From assembly GCA_020443005.1 (NCBI GenBank), contig JAGRJA010000250.1, forward strand, positions 1 through 40,088: 40,088 bases of DNA, in the 5' to 3' direction. Source of the stretch: Pseudomonadales bacterium. Lineage in GTDB: Bacteria > Pseudomonadota > Gammaproteobacteria > Pseudomonadales > UBA7239. The stretch's first letter is position 1. Every line of letters starts with the position of its first letter. The notes below the pieces were generated by a model, which searched no databases, was not told the DNA's origin, and saw only the letters and a program-made list of their open reading frames with translations. A program made the translations under genes and the position numbers. This document shows positions 2,076-11,576 of the stretch, piece after piece.

Positions 2076-3452
2076 CTATTGGATTTTTTCGAGTACCAAT
2101 GGCAAGTCATCAGCCGGTTTTGGCATGGGTACATGTTGTAATTTCGGATAATAATTATCGGGCGCCCTGAATCGGTATTTTTGTACAAACTGGAACATAA
2201 ACAGTTTCGCCTGCATGGCGGCGAAATGCATACCGATACATTTGTGCGGCCCCCCACCAAACGGCACATAAAGGAAAGGATGACCTTTTTGCTCTGATCG
2301 CTCTGGTGAAAAACGATCCGGGTCAAATTTTTCCGGGTCTTTCCAGTATTTATCCATTTTGTGGTTATAACAGGGAGGAATAAAGATCATCGTGTTAGCA
2401 GGTACACGATGCCCACCAATTTCACATTCGCGAACCGTTCTGCGCGTCATCAACTCCACGGAAGGGTGTAAACGCAATGTCTCATGGAAAATATCATCCA
2501 GAATCTGCATATTGTTGATATCGTCATAGTCCATGAATTCCTTACCCATCGACACACAGGCATCACGCAGTTTTTCTTGCCAATCCTGATGCACAGCGAG
2601 ACGATAAACCATATGGGTCAATGCACTTGTGGTTGTATCATGAGCACCAAAAAGCAGGAATGACACATGCTGAACAATATCATCATAGGAAAACAGATCG
2701 CCCTCTTCCGTTTTCTCATGACACATGAATGACAGAATGTCGCTACCCGGCTCCTTACGCTTCATCTCGATCAGACTTTTCACATAATCATGAATAAAGC
2801 GTTTACCCTGTTGCCCCTTGTGATACTTCAACCAGGGCAAAGGAATATCCTTACGAACAATTGCAGTCAAACCATCTGTTGTTGCGATAAAAGCATCATT
2901 AAGCTTTTCAGCCTCGGGACCGATGTCATCAAGATCAATAAATACCTTCGCCACTGAGCGCAACAATGATTTTTTTATGTGCGGAAAGAAAGTAAATTCG
3001 TAAGGACTCCACTCCGCAATATACTTTTTGAAAAGCGGATTGATAACATCGACATAACCTTTCATGGCATTATTTTTGAAAGCCGACTGAAAAATCCTGC
3101 GCTGCATACGGTGCTCATCAAAATCCCTGAGTAATAAACCACCTTTATAAAAACGACCCAGACGCTCTGCGTAACCCATTTCTGTAGAGAAGTTCCTTTC
3201 CGGATCAAGGTAAATCTGCTTCAGGTTTTCGGGCCCCATCACCAATAAACCTCTTTGACCACCCAGATTGACACGGGAAACCTCGCCAAAACGCACATAA
3301 TGCTCATGCACAAGTGCATGTAAATCAGTCAGGATTTCATAGGTTTTACCGAGAACCGGCATACCATATTCGCCGGGAATATGATCCAGATTTTGTGCGT
3401 CAGGTTGATCTTTATAGGATAGGTCGAATGTAGCTTTTACAGCCTGCGCCAT
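2076..3452 (-). CDS. Cytochrome P450 (458 aa, soluble)
   Basis: I-helix GAHDTTT, ExxR (ETLR) and heme-thiolate loop FGGGPHKCIG. N-terminal IPGEYGMPVLGKT motif. GAGGAG SD before ATG 3452. Confidence 0.9.
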   Translation of the reverse strand: MAQAVKATFDLSYKDQPDAQNLDHIPGEYGMPVLGKTYEILTDLHALVHEHYVRFGEVSRVNLGGQRGLLVMGPENLKQIYLDPERNFSTEMGYAERLGRFYKGGLLLRDFDEHRMQRRIFQSAFKNNAMKGYVDVINPLFKKYIAEWSPYEFTFFPHIKKSLLRSVAKVFIDLDDIGPEAEKLNDAFIATTDGLTAIVRKDIPLPWLKYHKGQQGKRFIHDYVKSLIEMKRKEPGSDILSFMCHEKTEEGDLFSYDDIVQHVSFLLFGAHDTTTSALTHMVYRLAVHQDWQEKLRDACVSMGKEFMDYDDINNMQILDDIFHETLRLHPSVELMTRRTVRECEIGGHRVPANTMIFIPPCYNHKMDKYWKDPEKFDPDRFSPERSEQKGHPFLYVPFGGGPHKCIGMHFAAMQAKLFMFQFVQKYRFRAPDNYYPKLQHVPMPKPADDLPLVLEKIQ

Positions 3453-3534
3453 AACTTACTCCTCAAGCAATGACAGAATTGTCTGATGTATCGATATTGA
3501 AGGGGTATAGTTACGGATTAACGGTTTGCAAACA

Positions 3535-3548
3535 TTGATTCGCGTCAA
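3535..3548 (-). promoter_or_regulatory. FNR/CRP-family box TTGATTCGCGTCAA
   Basis: 9/10 match to TTGAT-N4-ATCAA. Centre is about 90 nt upstream of the P450 ATG (3452), in the fnr-P450 intergenic region. Confidence 0.55.
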
Positions 3549-3644: not shown

Positions 3645-4415
3645 TTACTTGTCCTGATTCACATTGGCCGCCTTTTTCAGTGCATCCATATCAAGAATCT
3701 CGATTTCCTTATTGGTCACCTTGAGCACATTATTCTTTTGCAGACGACCAAATGAACGGCTGACAGTTTCTACCGTGATACCCAGATAATTTCCGATATC
3801 GGAACGGGTCATGGCCAGGCGAAACTTCGTTGCCGATAGGTGACGACTGCTGTTTCTTGCAGAAATACTCAACAGGAGTGACGACAACCTCTCGTCAGCC
3901 GAATTGCACCCCAACAGCGTCAGCATTTGTTGGTCTTTTATGATTTCCTTGCCCATGATACGAAAAAAGTGGTGCTGCAGGGATGGCAATTTGGTTGCCA
4001 AACCTTCAAGTCTTTCAAAGGGTATTTCACAAACGCTGGATACTTCTAGAGCGACTGCTGACGCACAATGGTGTCGGCTACTGATACCGTCCATACCCAG
4101 AATTTCCCCGGGCAAGTAAAAACCCGTTACCTGAACCTCGCCACTGTCGGTAATGGAATAGGCCTTGAAGCTGCCAGAACGCACAGCGTAGACAGAATGG
4201 AATTCGTCACTTTCACGAAAAAGATGATCTCCTTTCTGTAAAGGGCGACCCCTCTTTACGATCTCATCCAGTTGATCAACCTCTTCGGTACTGAGTGCAA
4301 TCGGCAAACAAAGGGCTCCAAGCCGACAATCCGAACAACTGACATTCGGGTTTGTGTGACATCTTGCGCGAGCAACTTTGGGTTCTTCGCTAATCTTCAT
4401 GCTATTGCCTGGCAT
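3645..4415 (-). CDS. fnr: FNR/ANR-type oxygen-sensing Crp/Fnr family transcriptional regulator
   Basis: N-terminal Cys cluster C-x2-C-x5-C (SCSDCRLGALC) plus the VCEIPF cysteine gives the FNR [4Fe-4S] ligand pattern. C-terminal HTH carries the ETVSR recognition motif. Start set at ATG 4415 (AGGAAA SD); the ORF stays open to 4451. Confidence 0.9.
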   Translation of the reverse strand: MPGNSMKISEEPKVARARCHTNPNVSCSDCRLGALCLPIALSTEEVDQLDEIVKRGRPLQKGDHLFRESDEFHSVYAVRSGSFKAYSITDSGEVQVTGFYLPGEILGMDGISSRHHCASAVALEVSSVCEIPFERLEGLATKLPSLQHHFFRIMGKEIIKDQQMLTLLGCNSADERLSSLLLSISARNSSRHLSATKFRLAMTRSDIGNYLGITVETVSRSFGRLQKNNVLKVTNKEIEILDMDALKKAANVNQDK

Positions 4416-4424
4416 GTTTGTTTC

Positions 4425-4438
4425 CTGACCTGAATCAA
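4425..4438 (-). promoter_or_regulatory. Possible FNR box CTGACCTGAATCAA overlapping the fnr translation-initiation region
   Basis: 8/10 to the TTGAT-N4-ATCAA consensus (9/10 if C is allowed at position 5, as in the other boxes here). Lies 10-23 nt upstream of ATG 4415 and overlaps the SD. It would be inside the CDS if the 4451 start is real. Confidence 0.3.
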
Positions 4439-4606
4439 ATGGATACGACAAGTACCCATTTTCTACAAGATAGGGGCGCTATGCAATAGCAGCAGTACAA
4501 TGAAGCAAGCAAAACAAAAAATCCGAACCCTGATTGGACACAGAACAACAGACTGGCAAAAACCCATGCAATTCAGGGTGTCAAATTTATTTTTGCAGCG
4601 TGTTAA

Positions 4607-6224: not shown

Positions 6225-7817
6225 CTAACGCTGAATTTGCCAATCTGTACCACTGTACAGACTCACAGCAGCGTTTCCTGTCACATTGGCTGCATCAATG
6301 GTAAAGATCTGCCAGTTTCCACTCGTATGTCTTAACAAAAGATCAGCATCTCCATCACCATCAAAATCACCTTCTGTTTCAAAAGACCACGCGATACTTG
6401 AAAACAGATCGAGCACATGACTACCGACCACTGTGGCTGACTGAACATCAAAAATTCGCCATGTACCAAGAAGCGTATTTCTGATCAAAATATCATCATC
6501 GCCATCGCCATCAAAATCACTGGCCACCTGAAACTGGTAATCAGAAGAAGCAAATAGTTGAGGCAGCCCGTAACTTGAAACCACAGCACCGGCTTCCACA
6601 ACAAACAAACGATATTTGCCGTCTGCACCTCTCAAGAGAATATCGTCATCAATATCCCCATCAAAATCACCCATACCTGCAAACGAATAGCTTGTACTTG
6701 ACCACAAATTGAATGCAGAATTTGCAACAACAGCCCCCGATTGAATCGTGAACAAACGCCATATACCCGTTATATTATTGCGCATAAGCACATCATCGTC
6801 CGAATCAGCATCAGCATCAAATGCAGCCACGAAATCCCAGTCTGAACCGGTATAAAGATTGATAAATACTGCTGGTGGCGGTGTCGCTTCACCCGCTTCG
6901 ACAATAATCAACTTCCACTGCCCGTCAGTGCTGCGACGGGTAATCACATCCTTATCGCCATCACCATCCACATCGAGGTTTGCTTGATGAATGCGCTGGC
7001 CATCATTGGTTGCGGCAAAGATGGTATTACTGTCTACAGCACCTGACTGAAAGGAAAACAATCGCCATACATTGGAATTAACATTGCGAACCAATATGTC
7101 ATCATCAAAGTCAGCATCAAAATCACTTTCTCCCGCAGAGGCAATCAGACAAATTGAAGCCGGATCAAGCGGGTCAGAACCACAGGCAATTTCATCAAGA
7201 TCACTAATGCCATCGTTGTCATCATTCAGATCTGCATTGTTTCCGATACCATCATTATCAGTATCCACAGACTCGGTAGCATCAAACGGAAAATCATCGC
7301 TTGAATCGGGAACACCATCATTATCATCATCCAGATCGCAGGCATCTCCTTCAGCATCACCGTCGTTATTTTCCTGTCCACTGTTCGCAATTTCAGGACA
7401 GTTATCCAGATGGTTTTTGACACCGTCGGCATCGGCATCTTCAGTAAAGCCCCAGTTAGCGCAATCGACAATGTTGTACCAGGTGTTCAGTGTTGTACCA
7501 CCGACCTGATAGCATTTGTTGCCATCGAGCGTACCGTAGCTGAAATCAAAAATCGTTTCTCCCGCAACAGCCCAGGCCTTCAAGCCCACATTAGTCGAAT
7601 TAACGGGGATAGATTCGTAATGCAGATTATTCTGGCAACCCCAGGCGCTCCAGGAAACAGTGCCCCCATTTGCTCGATGCTCGGCATCAACAACATAACC
7701 GGTCTGACCACAAGGCATATAGATGCCGAGAATATAATAGGTTTGTGCGTTAGCGGGATTGGATAAAAGAAGGGGTAAAAATGACAAACAGAATACAGCA
7801 AACAATTTTTTCATCAT
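6225..7817 (-). CDS. Secreted thrombospondin type-3 repeat / FG-GAP (beta-propeller) repeat protein
   Basis: Signal peptide MMKKLFAVFCLSFLPLLLSNPANA-Q. Ca-binding TSP3-like motifs DADADGVKNHLDNCP...NDGDAEGDACDLDDDNDGVPD (nt 7167-7442). Six repeats of about 50 aa of the DFDGDGDDDILIRN..G.WRIF type. AAGGAA SD. Confidence 0.8.
   Translation of the reverse strand: MMKKLFAVFCLSFLPLLLSNPANAQTYYILGIYMPCGQTGYVVDAEHRANGGTVSWSAWGCQNNLHYESIPVNSTNVGLKAWAVAGETIFDFSYGTLDGNKCYQVGGTTLNTWYNIVDCANWGFTEDADADGVKNHLDNCPEIANSGQENNDGDAEGDACDLDDDNDGVPDSSDDFPFDATESVDTDNDGIGNNADLNDDNDGISDLDEIACGSDPLDPASICLIASAGESDFDADFDDDILVRNVNSNVWRLFSFQSGAVDSNTIFAATNDGQRIHQANLDVDGDGDKDVITRRSTDGQWKLIIVEAGEATPPPAVFINLYTGSDWDFVAAFDADADSDDDVLMRNNITGIWRLFTIQSGAVVANSAFNLWSSTSYSFAGMGDFDGDIDDDILLRGADGKYRLFVVEAGAVVSSYGLPQLFASSDYQFQVASDFDGDGDDDILIRNTLLGTWRIFDVQSATVVGSHVLDLFSSIAWSFETEGDFDGDGDADLLLRHTSGNWQIFTIDAANVTGNAAVSLYSGTDWQIQR
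6228..7127 (-). repeat. Six tandem ~150-nt coding repeats (FG-GAP-like blades)
   Basis: D-x-D-x-D-x-D-D-[IV]-L motifs start at aa 232, 281, 333, 384, 434 and 484. A recurring nucleotide motif ccatcaaaatcac is seen at about 6358, 6498 and 6658. Confidence 0.75.
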
Positions 7818-7974: not shown

Positions 7975-8000
7975 AATAAAAAAAGCGCCCGAAGGCGCTT
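7975..8000 (-). terminator. Intrinsic terminator after the dioxygenase gene
   Basis: AGCGCC-cgaa-GGCGCT stem (7984-7999), followed on the minus strand by TTTTTTT. Confidence 0.75.
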
Positions 8001-8022
8001 CTCTTAACAGCCCGAAAAAACA

Positions 8023-8994
8023 TCAGTCTTTTTGTTTGATCTGCTGAGCCGACTCGGTAATGGTCTCCGGGTCAAGGCCTTTATGACCCCACACATCACC
8101 TTCGCAGAATTCACTCGGCAACCAGCTTTCGTCTACCAACAAACCTTCACAACCAATTTCAACCTCAAAACCAAAAGGGCTGCTCATGTAGAAAGACAGC
8201 ATGTTGTCGTTGGTATGACGACCAAGTGTTGATGTTACTTTGATACCAGCAGCTTCGACACGCTCCAGACATTGAGCCACCTGATCAATATTCTTCATTT
8301 CAAGCATCATGTGATGGATGCCGTTAACGGGGCCTACATGCGTCAAACCCAATGTATGGTGACGCGGGTTGCAATGATAGAAATTCGCCGATAAATCCGG
8401 CCCAAACTTGATGTAATCACTCAGCTTGAAACCCAGAACCCAAGTATAAAAGTCTTCGCACGCCTTCAGATCCTTGACGAAAAGATTGACATGCCCCAAA
8501 CCCAGTGAACCCGTCTGGAACTCCACATTGTAAGGCGATACAAACTTGTAGTCCTTGGTGGGTCCGTAGAAAAATTCGAGTGGATTTCCTGCCGGGTCTT
8601 CCGAAATGGCGATACCGGTCACAGACCTGTTCCGGGCTTCTTCGGCCGTTCCCATTCTTGCAGGAACGCCACCCTCTTTCAGCTCTTTAACAGCTTCTTC
8701 AAGATCCTGATAGCAAGCCATTTCAAAACCCATGTACATGATTCCGGCATTATCCTCACTGGGATGAATGCCTATCCGCCACTGGCGCTCATCCAGCTTC
8801 AGATATACCGAGCCATCCGGTGCCACTCCGGAACCAGCACTGGCAGGGCCAGAGGTCGGGTCCATGGGCATACCCCAATCTTCACCGGGATAAGCGCGTG
8901 CCGGCATGGCGCCGATGATATTGACACCATAATCCAGCCATTGTTTAGGGTCTGGCGCACCAAACCCGATGTAACCGAGAGATCTTACTTTCAT
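8023..8994 (-). CDS. Type I extradiol (meta-cleavage) ring-cleavage dioxygenase, BphC/HsaC-like
   Basis: Two-domain VOC pattern: MKVRSLGYIGF start, GLGHVNLF, CNPRHHTL, HHMMLE and LGRHTNDNMLSFY. Start set at ATG 8994 with GAAGGAAG SD, 22 nt after the P450 stop. The ORF track extends to 9042. Confidence 0.85.
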   Translation of the reverse strand: MKVRSLGYIGFGAPDPKQWLDYGVNIIGAMPARAYPGEDWGMPMDPTSGPASAGSGVAPDGSVYLKLDERQWRIGIHPSEDNAGIMYMGFEMACYQDLEEAVKELKEGGVPARMGTAEEARNRSVTGIAISEDPAGNPLEFFYGPTKDYKFVSPYNVEFQTGSLGLGHVNLFVKDLKACEDFYTWVLGFKLSDYIKFGPDLSANFYHCNPRHHTLGLTHVGPVNGIHHMMLEMKNIDQVAQCLERVEAAGIKVTSTLGRHTNDNMLSFYMSSPFGFEVEIGCEGLLVDESWLPSEFCEGDVWGHKGLDPETITESAQQIKQKD

Positions 8995-9016
8995 AACACG
9001 CTTCCTTCTGTTCTGC

Positions 9017-10222
9017 TTAGTCTTTGAGGCTTGTTGGCGCAAAGGTAATGGTTACCTTCCCCCAACCGGACAAATGTTCACCGTAAAGCGGCTCACACTC
9101 CTCCTCTACCAGCTCATAATCACCGATGGCCTTGAGCAATTCTTCAAGAATAATGACACCCATCATCACGCCCACATGCATACCCAGGCACTTGTGACCA
9201 CCGTGACCAAACATCAAGGTGCGCTTTGTGGGCTGGCGATACATATCAAACTTGTCGGCATTCTCGTATTCGTTTTCATCGCGTTCAGCCGATGCATAAA
9301 TATAAAGCAGTGGTTGCCCAGCCTTGATTTGCGCGCCGTTCACTTCAAAGTCAGCAATGGCTTTCCGGCATAACATATTGGTGGGCTGGTTATAGCGGGC
9401 TGTTTCCAGAAAGGCTTTTTTGACAAGAGACAGATCTTTTAGCACTGCCGCCTTCTGCTCAGGATTTTTTGCAAGGTTATAAAGTGTTCCCCCGACAGTA
9501 ATTGGCGTGGTTTCCGAACCAACAACCAACAGTGAGAAGAGGTAGAAAACGAGTTCTTCATCATCCAGTTTCTTGCCATCAATTTCAGCGTGCAAATAAG
9601 CGGCAGCATGACGAACCGCTTCTTCAGGGTGTGCACGCAATTCGGCAACCTTTGCACCGAGATAGCCAAACAGTTCACCTGCCGCTTTCTGGTTTCGCTC
9701 GGAACCGCCACCAACCTGGCCTTCATCACGCCATAACATATCGTCGATCAGTGCTCGCCATTTTTCTGCGTCTTCCTGTGGTAAACCCAGGTTATAACCA
9801 CCGTTGATGGTTGTGACACGGTTAGCCAATTCAGAGTAAACATCCATCTTGCCTTTGGCGAGCAAGGGTTTCAGAAATTCCCTGACCAGCGCACGAATGC
9901 GTGGCGCCTCTTTCGCTGCACCGTCAGGCGTATAGGCCTCGCGAATCAGACCCCGCCACTTACGATGTTCAGGTGCATCCATGGTCATAAATGTTTTCGG
10001 AATCAGTTCACCCAAAATAACCTGACCCGGTGTCTGGCCGGCAGTGAAAGTGATATTCCCCTCCTGCTTGAGACTGGCAGCCCACACATCCTCGAAACGA
10101 CAAAACGCCCAGGCATTGTATTTCTCGATAAAATGGGGTTTTCCTTCTGCACGCATAGCCTTGTACAGTGGATAAGGGTCTTTCATTGCCTCATGGGAAA
10201 AAGGATCGTAATCAACAGTCAT
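9017..10222 (-). CDS. Cytochrome P450 (401 aa, bacterial class I type)
   Basis: I-helix GSETT, ExxR (ETAR) and heme loop FGHGGHKCLG. AGGAGA SD before ATG 10222. Confidence 0.9.
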   Translation of the reverse strand: MTVDYDPFSHEAMKDPYPLYKAMRAEGKPHFIEKYNAWAFCRFEDVWAASLKQEGNITFTAGQTPGQVILGELIPKTFMTMDAPEHRKWRGLIREAYTPDGAAKEAPRIRALVREFLKPLLAKGKMDVYSELANRVTTINGGYNLGLPQEDAEKWRALIDDMLWRDEGQVGGGSERNQKAAGELFGYLGAKVAELRAHPEEAVRHAAAYLHAEIDGKKLDDEELVFYLFSLLVVGSETTPITVGGTLYNLAKNPEQKAAVLKDLSLVKKAFLETARYNQPTNMLCRKAIADFEVNGAQIKAGQPLLYIYASAERDENEYENADKFDMYRQPTKRTLMFGHGGHKCLGMHVGVMMGVIILEELLKAIGDYELVEEECEPLYGEHLSGWGKVTITFAPTSLKD

Positions 10223-10341
10223 TGCCGTCTCCTGAAAAATAATTGCGAACTATTCCGGCTGGCCGAGGTTCTCCTCGAATGGGAAAATGTGCCACCCAAT
10301 AAATAGGGTACTCATAGTACCGATATAACATCTACCAATTT

Positions 10342-10355
10342 TTGACATTAGTCAA
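10342..10355 (-). promoter_or_regulatory. FNR/CRP-family box TTGACATTAGTCAA
   Basis: Perfectly symmetric half-sites TTGAC/GTCAA with a 4-nt spacer. Centre is about 126 nt upstream of the P450 ATG 10222. Confidence 0.5.
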
Positions 10356-10421: not shown

Positions 10422-10760
10422 TCAATACCCCTGAGTGAGCTGAACCCAGGCTCTTTTTGCCTGTATGTACACAAATGCCACACCTTGAGAACTCACGAAA
10501 CGGGCATCACCGTCTTCCGGCGGGTCATAATCCTCTAACCCTTCAAGTGCAAGGGTGTTTTCAAGTACAGGTTTCCAGCAAAGGTTTCTCGGATCGCTCT
10601 CAAGGCCTAATTCACCACCAGACCAAACCAGACCATCTCTTTCGACCGGAGATGCAACATCAAAAGCGGCATCAATAAAGACAGCTGAAGTCCCCGCCAT
10701 TTTCTTGTAGAATCTGTCCGCTTTGCGATTTAACTGTTCGGCAAGACTTTTACCCTGCAT
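10422..10760 (-). CDS. Hypothetical protein (112 aa, acidic)
   Basis: Uninterrupted ORF with no motif I recognise. Sits downstream of the palindromic FNR-type box at 10830-10845. Confidence 0.45.
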   Translation of the reverse strand: MQGKSLAEQLNRKADRFYKKMAGTSAVFIDAAFDVASPVERDGLVWSGGELGLESDPRNLCWKPVLENTLALEGLEDYDPPEDGDARFVSSQGVAFVYIQAKRAWVQLTQGY

Positions 10761-10829
10761 AAAACCACCTTTTTTAAAGGGCTTTAGAGCTGAAAAACAA
10801 ACACTCTAGTGCATCCACAACCAAGCTAA

Positions 10830-10845
10830 GTTGACACAAGTCAAC
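10830..10845. promoter_or_regulatory. Perfect 16-bp palindromic FNR-type box GTTGAC-ACAA-GTCAAC shared by divergent genes
   Basis: The core TTGACACAAGTCAA fits TTGA-N6-TCAA. Centre is about 78 nt from ATG 10760 (-) and about 88 nt from ATG 10926 (+). Confidence 0.55.
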
Positions 10846-11562: not shown

Positions 11563-11576
11563 ATGATGGATGTCAT
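11563..11576 (+). promoter_or_regulatory. Degenerate FNR-type box ATGATGGATGTCAT upstream of ccoN
   Basis: The core TGAT-N4-GTCA matches 8/10 of the local consensus. Centre is about 60 nt upstream of the ccoN ATG. cbb3 operons are commonly FNR/ANR-activated. Confidence 0.3.

Follow-up and report, generated by a model that had tools for sequence, protein, structure and literature searches.

The stretch of DNA considered here (the window) comprises the 40,088 nucleotides of contig JAGRJA010000250.1, from the assembly GCA_020443005.1 of a Pseudomonadales bacterium (GTDB lineage UBA7239), and carries, between hemN and ccoNOQP, a cytochrome P450 gene followed by an extradiol dioxygenase gene, whose products resemble the estrogen-degrading enzymes EdcA and EdcB. 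Taken as a whole, the system is best explained (with a probability that we put at about 0.55) as a detached entry module of an edc-like pathway, expressed from a promoter that would be activated by FNR and, on top of it, controlled by a repressor. The enzymes are ordinary new members of a known family; what is new is the split architecture of the pathway and the FNR wiring. According to this explanation, the P450 would ortho-hydroxylate a phenolic ring (likely that of estrone or of a similar A-ring-aromatic steroid or phenol) to a catechol, drawing its electrons from a generic ferredoxin and reductase encoded elsewhere, and the dioxygenase would open the catechol by Fe(II)-dependent meta-cleavage. 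The cleavage product would then be passed to an EdcC-like enzyme of the indolepyruvate:ferredoxin-oxidoreductase (IOR) family and to beta-oxidation-type genes located on other contigs, the pair being the satellite "head" of an edc-like 4,5-seco pathway that forms a single cluster in other lineages and would have been broken up in this family. In the genus of the window (g1), the promoter would have lost its -35 box and gained an FNR site at the class II position; transcription would need [4Fe-4S]-FNR (i.e., oxygen limitation) and would be co-induced with hemN, ccoNOQP and a second P450 gene, and, through a palindrome lying over the -10 box, a TetR-type regulator would probably repress the operon as well, in a way that depends on the substrate.

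The two genes lie on the minus strand of a 2.64-Mb metagenome-assembled genome (MAG; G000, 516 contigs, ~97% complete), and their coordinates, together with those of the associated signals, are collected in Table 1. The P450 is preceded by an intergenic region of 199 nt, and its stop codon is separated by 22 nt from the ATG at 8994 (MKVRSLGY, with AGGAAG ahead), which is the real start of the dioxygenase; a strong intrinsic terminator behind the latter closes the unit, which is therefore a two-gene operon. This agrees with an original prediction, made from the DNA alone, that a P450 with the heme loop FGHGGHKCLG is followed 22 nt later by a dioxygenase and that no ferredoxin, ferredoxin reductase, hydrolase or other pathway genes are nearby: among the genes next to the pair there is none for a ferredoxin, a reductase, a hydrolase or any other catabolic function. 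Recent horizontal transfer of the pair was considered and rejected, there being no compositional sign of it (49.7% GC vs 48.6% for the genome).

Table 1. Features of the P450-dioxygenase operon, its promoter and its presumed regulator, in positions of the window
Feature	Position	Strand	Description
P450 gene	9017..10222	-	401 aa; soluble, EdcA-like, putative phenol (estrone-type) ortho-hydroxylase; PF00067
Dioxygenase gene	8023..8994	-	323 aa; EdcB-like, predicted Fe(II) extradiol meta-cleavage; loop at residues ~31-56
Intrinsic terminator	7977..8006	-	GC-rich hairpin and T run; begins 17 nt past the dioxygenase stop
P450 ribosome-binding site AGGAG	10229..10233	-	read from the sequence; kept in the sister species L057
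Putative -10 box TACTAT	10314..10319	-	starts 22 nt past the end of the FNR box, which would put the FNR site at ~-41.5
Perfect palindrome GGTACT-ATG-AGTACC	10307..10321	.	overlaps the -10 box; candidate repressor operator; unique in the genome
FNR/ANR-type box TTGACATTAGTCAA	10342..10355	.	perfect; minus-strand reading TTGAC-TAAT-GTCAA; centre 126.5 nt upstream of the P450 ATG
fnr gene	3645..4451	-	presumed trans-acting regulator; C-x2-C-x5-C cluster, Cys in SVCEIPF, ETVSR recognition helix

Characterised relatives of these enzymes come from Novosphingobium tardaugens, in which deletion, complementation and in vitro work identified EdcA as an estrone 4-hydroxylase of the P450 type, EdcB being the 4-hydroxyestrone 4,5-dioxygenase and EdcC an IOR-like enzyme that acts on the meta-cleavage product (PMC7793797). 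A cluster presented as homologous to that of edcA, edcB and edcC is found in Croceicoccus estronivorus MH-B5 (PMC7793797). The P450 of the window matches Pfam PF00067 at 4.6e-19 and is 55% identical to the edc-cluster P450 of that strain and 58% to that of Zhongshania aquimaris (the two proteins used in the orthology comparison); it stays below every NCBIfam equivalog cut-off, as the dioxygenase does. It is collinear with them over its full length, with only small terminal or few-residue indels, and the heme loop, the I-helix motif GSETTP and the ExxR motif (ETAR) are all conserved in the alignment. No other EdcA-like P450 is encoded in the genome, where the next-best match is just 24-26% identical, and the protein is predicted on these grounds to be EdcA-type, i.e., to belong to the estrone 4-hydroxylase family. 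In two orthologue frames from another genus of the family, g3 (G009:C1:980428-981627, TAG; G007:C1:437184-438395, TGA), there is one in-frame stop each around the P450, either within the coding sequence or upstream of the true start.

The dioxygenase is a two-domain type I extradiol enzyme (PF00903 and PF22632), in which the iron ligands and catalytic residues equivalent to those of BphC are intact in alignments to 1HAN (BphC) and 2ZI8 (HsaC); H168, H228 and E279, which would form the 2-His-1-carboxylate iron site, are invariant among 82 homologues. The original prediction had called it BphC/HsaC-like, a label that does not hold at the level of the family: the scores fall below the NCBIfam equivalog cut-offs both for BphC (TIGR03213, 247.7 vs 366.45) and for HsaC (NF045631, 224.5 vs 450), and the protein groups with EdcB, with identities of 62% to the C. 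estronivorus EdcB and 61% to the Z. aquimaris homologue. An AlphaFold2 model (mean predicted local distance difference test, pLDDT, 93.1; predicted template modelling score 0.91) finds its best structural match in HsaC (2ZI8; TM 0.83 and 0.90), followed by BphC. The same prediction had pointed to a Gly/Pro/Ser-rich insertion as something extra in this enzyme, and here one half stands: neither 1HAN nor 2ZI8 has anything that corresponds to residues ~33-55. The segment is not peculiar to the window protein, since it corresponds to a loop between the first strands of the N-terminal domain, operationally defined from the alignment as MPARAxPGExWGxPxxPxSGPASxGSG, that is near-invariant in the window protein, in a paralogue encoded on contig C101 and in the homologues from MH-B5, Zhongshania, Burkholderia and Sphingomonas. 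Whether 9 or 82 family members are aligned, it ranks among the best-conserved segments, with many invariant columns, and it is modelled as ordered, in spite of lacking regular secondary structure (ten-residue blocks with mean pLDDT of 89-98). Judging by the alignments and the model, the loop is a conserved hallmark of the EdcB family rather than an oddity of this gene, and it may act as a substrate lid or as a subunit contact. The dioxygenase itself is predicted to be EdcB-type and not BphC/HsaC-type. As for the pair, the assignment to EdcA/EdcB rather than to BphC/HsaC is made because the homologues sit adjacent to each other in the edc clusters of MH-B5, Zhongshania and a Pseudomonadales MAG; the earlier idea that such a pairing signals degradation of an aromatic or steroid ring was right in spirit.

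Searches in large databases returned hundreds of homologues (of ~320 aa for the dioxygenase or ~400 aa for the P450), most of them from marine Cellvibrionales, Halieaceae and Zhongshania MAGs and isolates, and others from the estrogen degraders C. estronivorus and Sphingobium estronivorans. In C. estronivorus MH-B5 (L009, JRQQ01000001), the two homologues are adjacent and stand among genes for an acyl-CoA dehydrogenase, an enoyl-CoA hydratase, a thiolase and a ChsH2-like protein. In Z. aquimaris and the Pseudomonadales MAG, the pair heads clusters that are complete and collinear, with an EdcC-like gene in last place, the order being P450, dioxygenase, small glyoxalase, TetR, short-chain dehydrogenase/reductase (SDR), ChsH2-like, thiolase, two enoyl-CoA hydratases and EdcC-like. 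The distribution of the genes was surveyed in 41 related genomes, 16 from the family of the window and 25 from other families of the order. The P450, the dioxygenase and an EdcC-like protein (71-81% identical) co-occur in essentially all 16 family genomes, the gaps falling in genomes that are 62-79% complete; outside the family, the P450 and the dioxygenase occur together in only one of the 25, and several of these 25 hold weaker EdcC-family matches (46-55% identity). The two genes are neighbours in g1, in a second genus of the family (g2) and in the single outside genome. In the dioxygenase tree, the cluster-type copies and the single copies of g3 form one well-supported clade, and the P450-paired copies lie outside it, within the same family-level group. 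Two further observations concern the surroundings of these loci. In g2 (L010 7613-9691), an SdsA1-type alkyl-sulfatase gene lies divergently beside the pair, and in Zhongshania (L040 3242-4891, 5990-8263) the edc cluster has an arylsulfatase and a TonB-dependent receptor as neighbours; such flanking sulfatases hint that sulfated phenolics or steroids could be natural substrates.

Where, then, is the rest of the pathway? The original prediction had allowed that a larger known catabolic cluster elsewhere could supply the context of the pair, and this is partly so: the genome holds an edc-like gene set, spread over C101, C489, C172 and C209. On C101, a second EdcB paralogue, whose identity is 68% with the copy of the window and 64% with that of MH-B5, is followed by genes for an acyl-CoA dehydrogenase, an SDR, a ChsH2-like protein, a thiolase and two enoyl-CoA hydratases, which gives it the cluster placement that the window copy does not have, the latter standing outside any local estrogen cluster with only the P450 adjacent. 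Contig C489 contributes an acyl-CoA dehydrogenase, two hot-dog proteins, a TetR regulator, the A and B subunits of a CoA-transferase, a DUF35 protein and a thiolase; C172, an EdcC-like protein of the IOR family (1132 bits vs a cut-off of 816; 56% identical to the Zhongshania EdcC-like protein); and C209, a small glyoxalase. In searches with edc-cluster proteins, no HsaD-type hydrolase was found beside either dioxygenase copy. Divergently beside the C101 operon there is an open reading frame (ORF) that, by eye, resembles a tyrosine recombinase of the integron-integrase type.

The missing redox partners, which had been remarked on at the outset, are the normal state of such systems: the characterised edc cluster has no ferredoxin or ferredoxin reductase genes either, and EdcA was assayed with spinach ferredoxin, ferredoxin reductase and NADPH (PMC7793797). 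The genome is unusually rich in P450s for its small size, with ~18 cytochrome P450 genes in 2.6 Mb and few candidate redox partners. A single P450-type [3Fe-4S]-like ferredoxin (Fer4_15) is encoded at C384:2574-2762, beside a different P450, and a genome search found no ferredoxin reductase of the putidaredoxin-reductase type (Reductase_C). Two Fer2 hits were discarded as dedicated partners, since by eye they resemble the small subunit of a CoxS-like molybdoenzyme and a formate-dehydrogenase-type protein.

The second line of evidence comes from the promoter. The symmetric FNR-type box that had been noticed about 126 nt upstream of the P450 is indeed there, centred 126.5 nt from the ATG. Sites that perfectly match TTGAY-N4-RTCAA are rare in the genome, with only 20 in 2.64 Mb, and yet five of them lie in the window, vs 0.27 expected (none of 100 shuffles reached five); one-mismatch sites are found at 4425 and 21369, and at 11563 there is none when up to one mismatch is allowed. 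The full CRP/FNR-family regulators of the genome are two, FNR and a Crp/Vfr-like protein on C374. At all five boxes of the window, a TAnnnT-type hexamer starts 21-22 nt past the end of the box, and this spacing is shared by the promoters of hemN, P450b (the second P450), orf112, Yip1/cco, the P450-dioxygenase operon and a gene for a 39-aa peptide (box at 1993). It fits a class II arrangement with the site centred at ~-41.5 from a transcription start that we infer from the spacing. Furthermore, the P450 promoter lacks a -35-like hexamer (the position at 17 nt reads AAAATT), and the combination of an FNR site at class II spacing with the lack of a -35 box makes the promoter look activator-dependent. 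Between microaerobic co-induction with the cbb3 oxidase and repression by FNR, the two options raised at the outset, this anatomy favours the former and FNR-mediated repression is disfavoured.

The comparison with close relatives points in the same direction. The sister species (L057/L058, with a P450 95% identical; contigs from the sequencing runs SRR33375179 and SRR33375183) keeps the gene order and all five boxes, and when the P450 upstream regions of the two species are aligned, conservation is confined to the two half-sites of the box, a block of 26 nt, ATATCGGTACTATGAGTACCCTATTT, and the ribosome-binding site, the spacer and the flanks having diverged. At orthologous promoters, where the window has the FNR site, there are -35 hexamers (TTGACA in the C101 operon and TTGACC ahead of the P450 of the outside genome, L034), and these good -35 boxes suggest that in g1 a -35 box was swapped for an FNR site. 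No box was found upstream of the P450 in g2 (L010, L062), g3 (L029-L036) or G038. P450b (2076-3452, minus strand; 458 aa, within the region 2076-3548) behaves in a different way: it lies directly downstream of fnr, has its own FNR box at 3535-3548, and the arrangement of box and gene is kept in the sister species, in g2 (L010 12275-13710) and in three g3 genomes (L064-L066, in the order fnr, box, P450b; by eye, the frame just upstream of the box in L064 and L065 ends like the C-terminus of FNR). Its best match in the PDB is CYP120 from Synechocystis (2VE3). To judge from these loci, the linkage of FNR to the oxygen-dependent P450b looks like a family trait, ancestral to the family, and because the box is kept at P450b across genera and at the pair only in g1, FNR control of the EdcA/EdcB-like pair would be genus-specific. 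In the literature, no report was found of FNR/ANR control of an EdcA/EdcB-type, P450 or extradiol catabolic operon.

Apart from the FNR site, the promoter contains the palindrome listed in Table 1, which lies inside the 26-nt block (10301-10326), 100% conserved with the sister species in an intergenic region that has otherwise diverged. It had been flagged as terminator-like in a scan, and it is judged more likely to be a DNA operator because it overlaps the -10 box. There is a published precedent for such a placement, as the operator of the TetR-type regulator EdcR, with consensus TnnCnnTACnAnTnGTAnnGnnA, also overlaps the -10 box (PMC8700777). In the MAG, the promoter of the C101 operon (7190-7250) carries a 12-5-12 palindrome, ATTATTACGATAC-N5-GTATCGTAATAAT, between a TTGACA -35 box and a TAGTAT -10 box, which agrees with the EdcR consensus at all 12 specified positions, and a similar 12-3-12 repeat lies on C489 (860-900), upstream of the acyl-CoA dehydrogenase gene, with agreement at 11 of the 12. 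A second perfect match to the consensus genome-wide, at C457:6323, was rejected as an operator, since it falls within an SDR gene, where the TGxxxGIG motif is encoded; in the Croceicoccus and Zhongshania loci examined, no match of at least 11/12 was found. Related sites of the form CGRTAC-N5-GTNYCG, which resemble the C101 and C489 operators, occur 35-50 nt upstream of the orthologous P450 in L010, L062 and L034. Taken one by one, these operator-like sites upstream of a P450 are weak; that they turn up at the same place in three lineages speaks for a common repressor, the most plausible candidate being the TetR of the cluster (the one encoded on C489 is 44% identical to the TetR of the Zhongshania cluster). 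"EdcR-type" control of the window promoter is a tentative proposal, to which we would give somewhat less than even odds.

The remaining boxes of the window deserve a brief description, as does one neighbour of the operon. The box at 1993-2006 lies in a convergent intergenic region (1807-2006), with an ATAATT/TAATTT -10-like sequence at class II spacing on the minus strand, and precedes an ORF for a hydrophobic peptide of 39 aa, MTKDNSVEDAPVVKQMAMVLVGFAVMTAVIAVVINIVVV; L057 has the same box and an ORF of 38 aa. The product of orf112 (10422-10844) is an acidic orphan of 112 aa with no Pfam or NCBIfam match, and the gene shares a perfect box (10831-10844) with the divergent Yip1-domain gene and ccoNOQP, orphan and box being kept in L010 and L057/L058. 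Between hemN and the dioxygenase, the window (6225-7817) encodes a secreted protein with TSP3 repeats and FG-GAP, paralogues of which, encoded on C11, C265 and C457, have the common ending ...DWQ(I/L/V)QR.

Several points weigh against a detached, FNR-activated and repressor-controlled estrogen-type module. With identities of 55-62%, the sequences make the family secure and the identity of the substrate not. In g3, the P450, dioxygenase and EdcC-like genes are dispersed, the first two being unlinked and in housekeeping contexts. The box ahead of the pair is restricted to one genus, as the pair of g2 and the single genes of g3 are boxless, and making the sole first-step oxygenase dependent on low oxygen is physiologically counter-intuitive. 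Regarding the repressor, the core of the window palindrome agrees with the C101-type operator at 9 of 12 positions, which alone is not significant, and the C489 TetR is only 26% identical to the TetR of C. estronivorus MH-B5 over 80 N-terminal residues, for which reason it is not called EdcR here. Part of this would be accommodated if the same enzymology and regulation served a non-steroid phenolic (an alkylphenol, a diterpenoid phenol or a phenol of the algal or lignin type), the edc-like genes then degrading its side product. The distance to the proven or cluster-assigned EdcA/EdcB proteins and the dispersal in g3 are in keeping with it, and so are the large number of P450s, which suggests a broad oxygenase repertoire, and the host family, made up of small-genome marine MAGs of the Cellvibrionales type, in whose surroundings estrogens are scarce. 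Nevertheless, we consider it unlikely, since the whole set (P450, looped EdcB, small glyoxalase, EdcC-type IOR, ChsH2-like protein, thiolase and enoyl-CoA hydratase) co-occurs and in relatives is collinear with characterised estrogen clusters, and since the closest structural match is a steroid enzyme, HsaC. That same match, together with the BphC and HsaC hits that head the PDB searches by sequence and fold and the JGI annotations of homologues, which name the HsaC reaction, could be taken to indicate a module for biphenyl or for 9,10-seco steroid A-ring degradation, in which the P450 would hydroxylate a side chain or a ring. This is very improbable in view of the scores well below both equivalog cut-offs, the EdcB-specific loop that BphC and HsaC lack, the nearest named relatives residing in edc clusters and the lack of an HsaD-type hydrolase beside either dioxygenase.

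The direction of the FNR effect is a separate matter. Might the site repress the operon, or be physiologically irrelevant, with expression taking place mainly in air? Both enzymes need oxygen, FNR represses some aerobic genes in E. coli, and the orthologous pair of other genera has no box. However, a single site at a spacing to the -10-like hexamer identical to that of hemN and cco, with no -35 box, is the classic class II layout; besides, the half-sites are kept in the sister species where the flanks have diverged, and the second P450, downstream of fnr, has a box in three genera, all of which makes repression or irrelevance quite unlikely. There is also precedent for raising an oxygen-consuming enzyme at low oxygen, as in the case of the cbb3 oxidase itself and of the oxygen-dependent hemF, which ANR/DNR induce in P. 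aeruginosa. At the other end stands a more ambitious proposal, according to which the whole estrogen-type pathway would be hypoxia-gated in the genus: the sole first-step P450 and a dedicated dioxygenase paralogue, both under an FNR-dependent promoter that a substrate-responsive repressor would also control, would make up a low-oxygen isozyme set with high affinity for oxygen, expressed with cbb3 as a result of the swap of the -35 box for the FNR site, and the C101 paralogue would serve in normoxia. We regard this as rather doubtful; if it were true, the genus would offer a natural example of oxygenase-dependent breakdown of aromatics adapted to microoxic settings, for instance on particles or at the margins of oxygen-minimum zones.

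For the explanation that we prefer, that of an edc-like entry module under FNR activation and repressor control, the interest is twofold. On the one hand, the organisms in which the opening of the ring by the estrogen-type 4,5-seco route has been characterised are nearly all sludge and soil sphingomonads and actinobacteria, and very few estrogen degraders from marine settings are known, according to a 2025 review; here, a whole family of small-genome marine bacteria of the Cellvibrionales type has EdcA-, EdcB- and EdcC-like genes as core genes, scattered round the genome. On the other hand, in one genus of that family the oxygen-requiring entry steps appear to be wired to FNR beside the high-affinity oxidase. 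If this is true, it would provide a testable case of oxygenase-dependent degradation that is kept going at low oxygen, and the promoter would be a natural AND gate (FNR activation plus release of the repressor) that could be used in biosensors.

Finally, how does this operon compare with the systems already known? The reference is EdcA/EdcB of Caenibius (Novosphingobium) tardaugens NBRC 16725, with orthologues in C. estronivorus MH-B5 and in Sphingomonas sp. KC8 (OecC) (PMC7793797). Like them, the window encodes a soluble class I-type P450 and a type I extradiol dioxygenase with the same loop of ~25 residues, no ferredoxin or ferredoxin reductase gene in the cluster, an EdcC-type IOR and beta-oxidation genes in the genome, and a palindromic operator-like site over the -10 box. 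Unlike them, the pair is detached from the pathway, the second EdcB paralogue being the one that stays with the beta-oxidation genes; the position of the -35 box appears to be taken by an FNR site, and the host is a marine gammaproteobacterial MAG instead of a sphingomonad. The arrangement also recalls aedA/aedB of Rhodococcus sp. B50, an adjacent P450 (estrone 4-hydroxylase) and meta-cleavage dioxygenase (4-hydroxyestrone 4,5-dioxygenase) for the estrogen A ring (PMC8085986, PMC12507874); a review puts the identity between the actinobacterial and the proteobacterial proteins below 40%. With HsaC of M. tuberculosis (2ZI8) and BphC (1HAN), the dioxygenase shares the fold (TM 0.8-0.9), the iron ligands and the catalytic His, Tyr and Asp, and it differs from both in its 35-39% identity, in scoring under their equivalog cut-offs, in the loop at residues ~31-56 and in the pathway context. 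As for the promoter, it resembles the class II promoters of E. coli FNR and Pseudomonas ANR (such as those of hemN and ccoN and, reportedly, of the oxygen-dependent hemF in P. aeruginosa), in which a site of the TTGAT-N4-ATCAA type at ~41.5 bp from the presumed start replaces the -35 box, and hemN, cco and fnr all lie in the vicinity of the operon. What sets it apart from the known class II targets of FNR and ANR is the target itself, a catabolic oxygenase pair.

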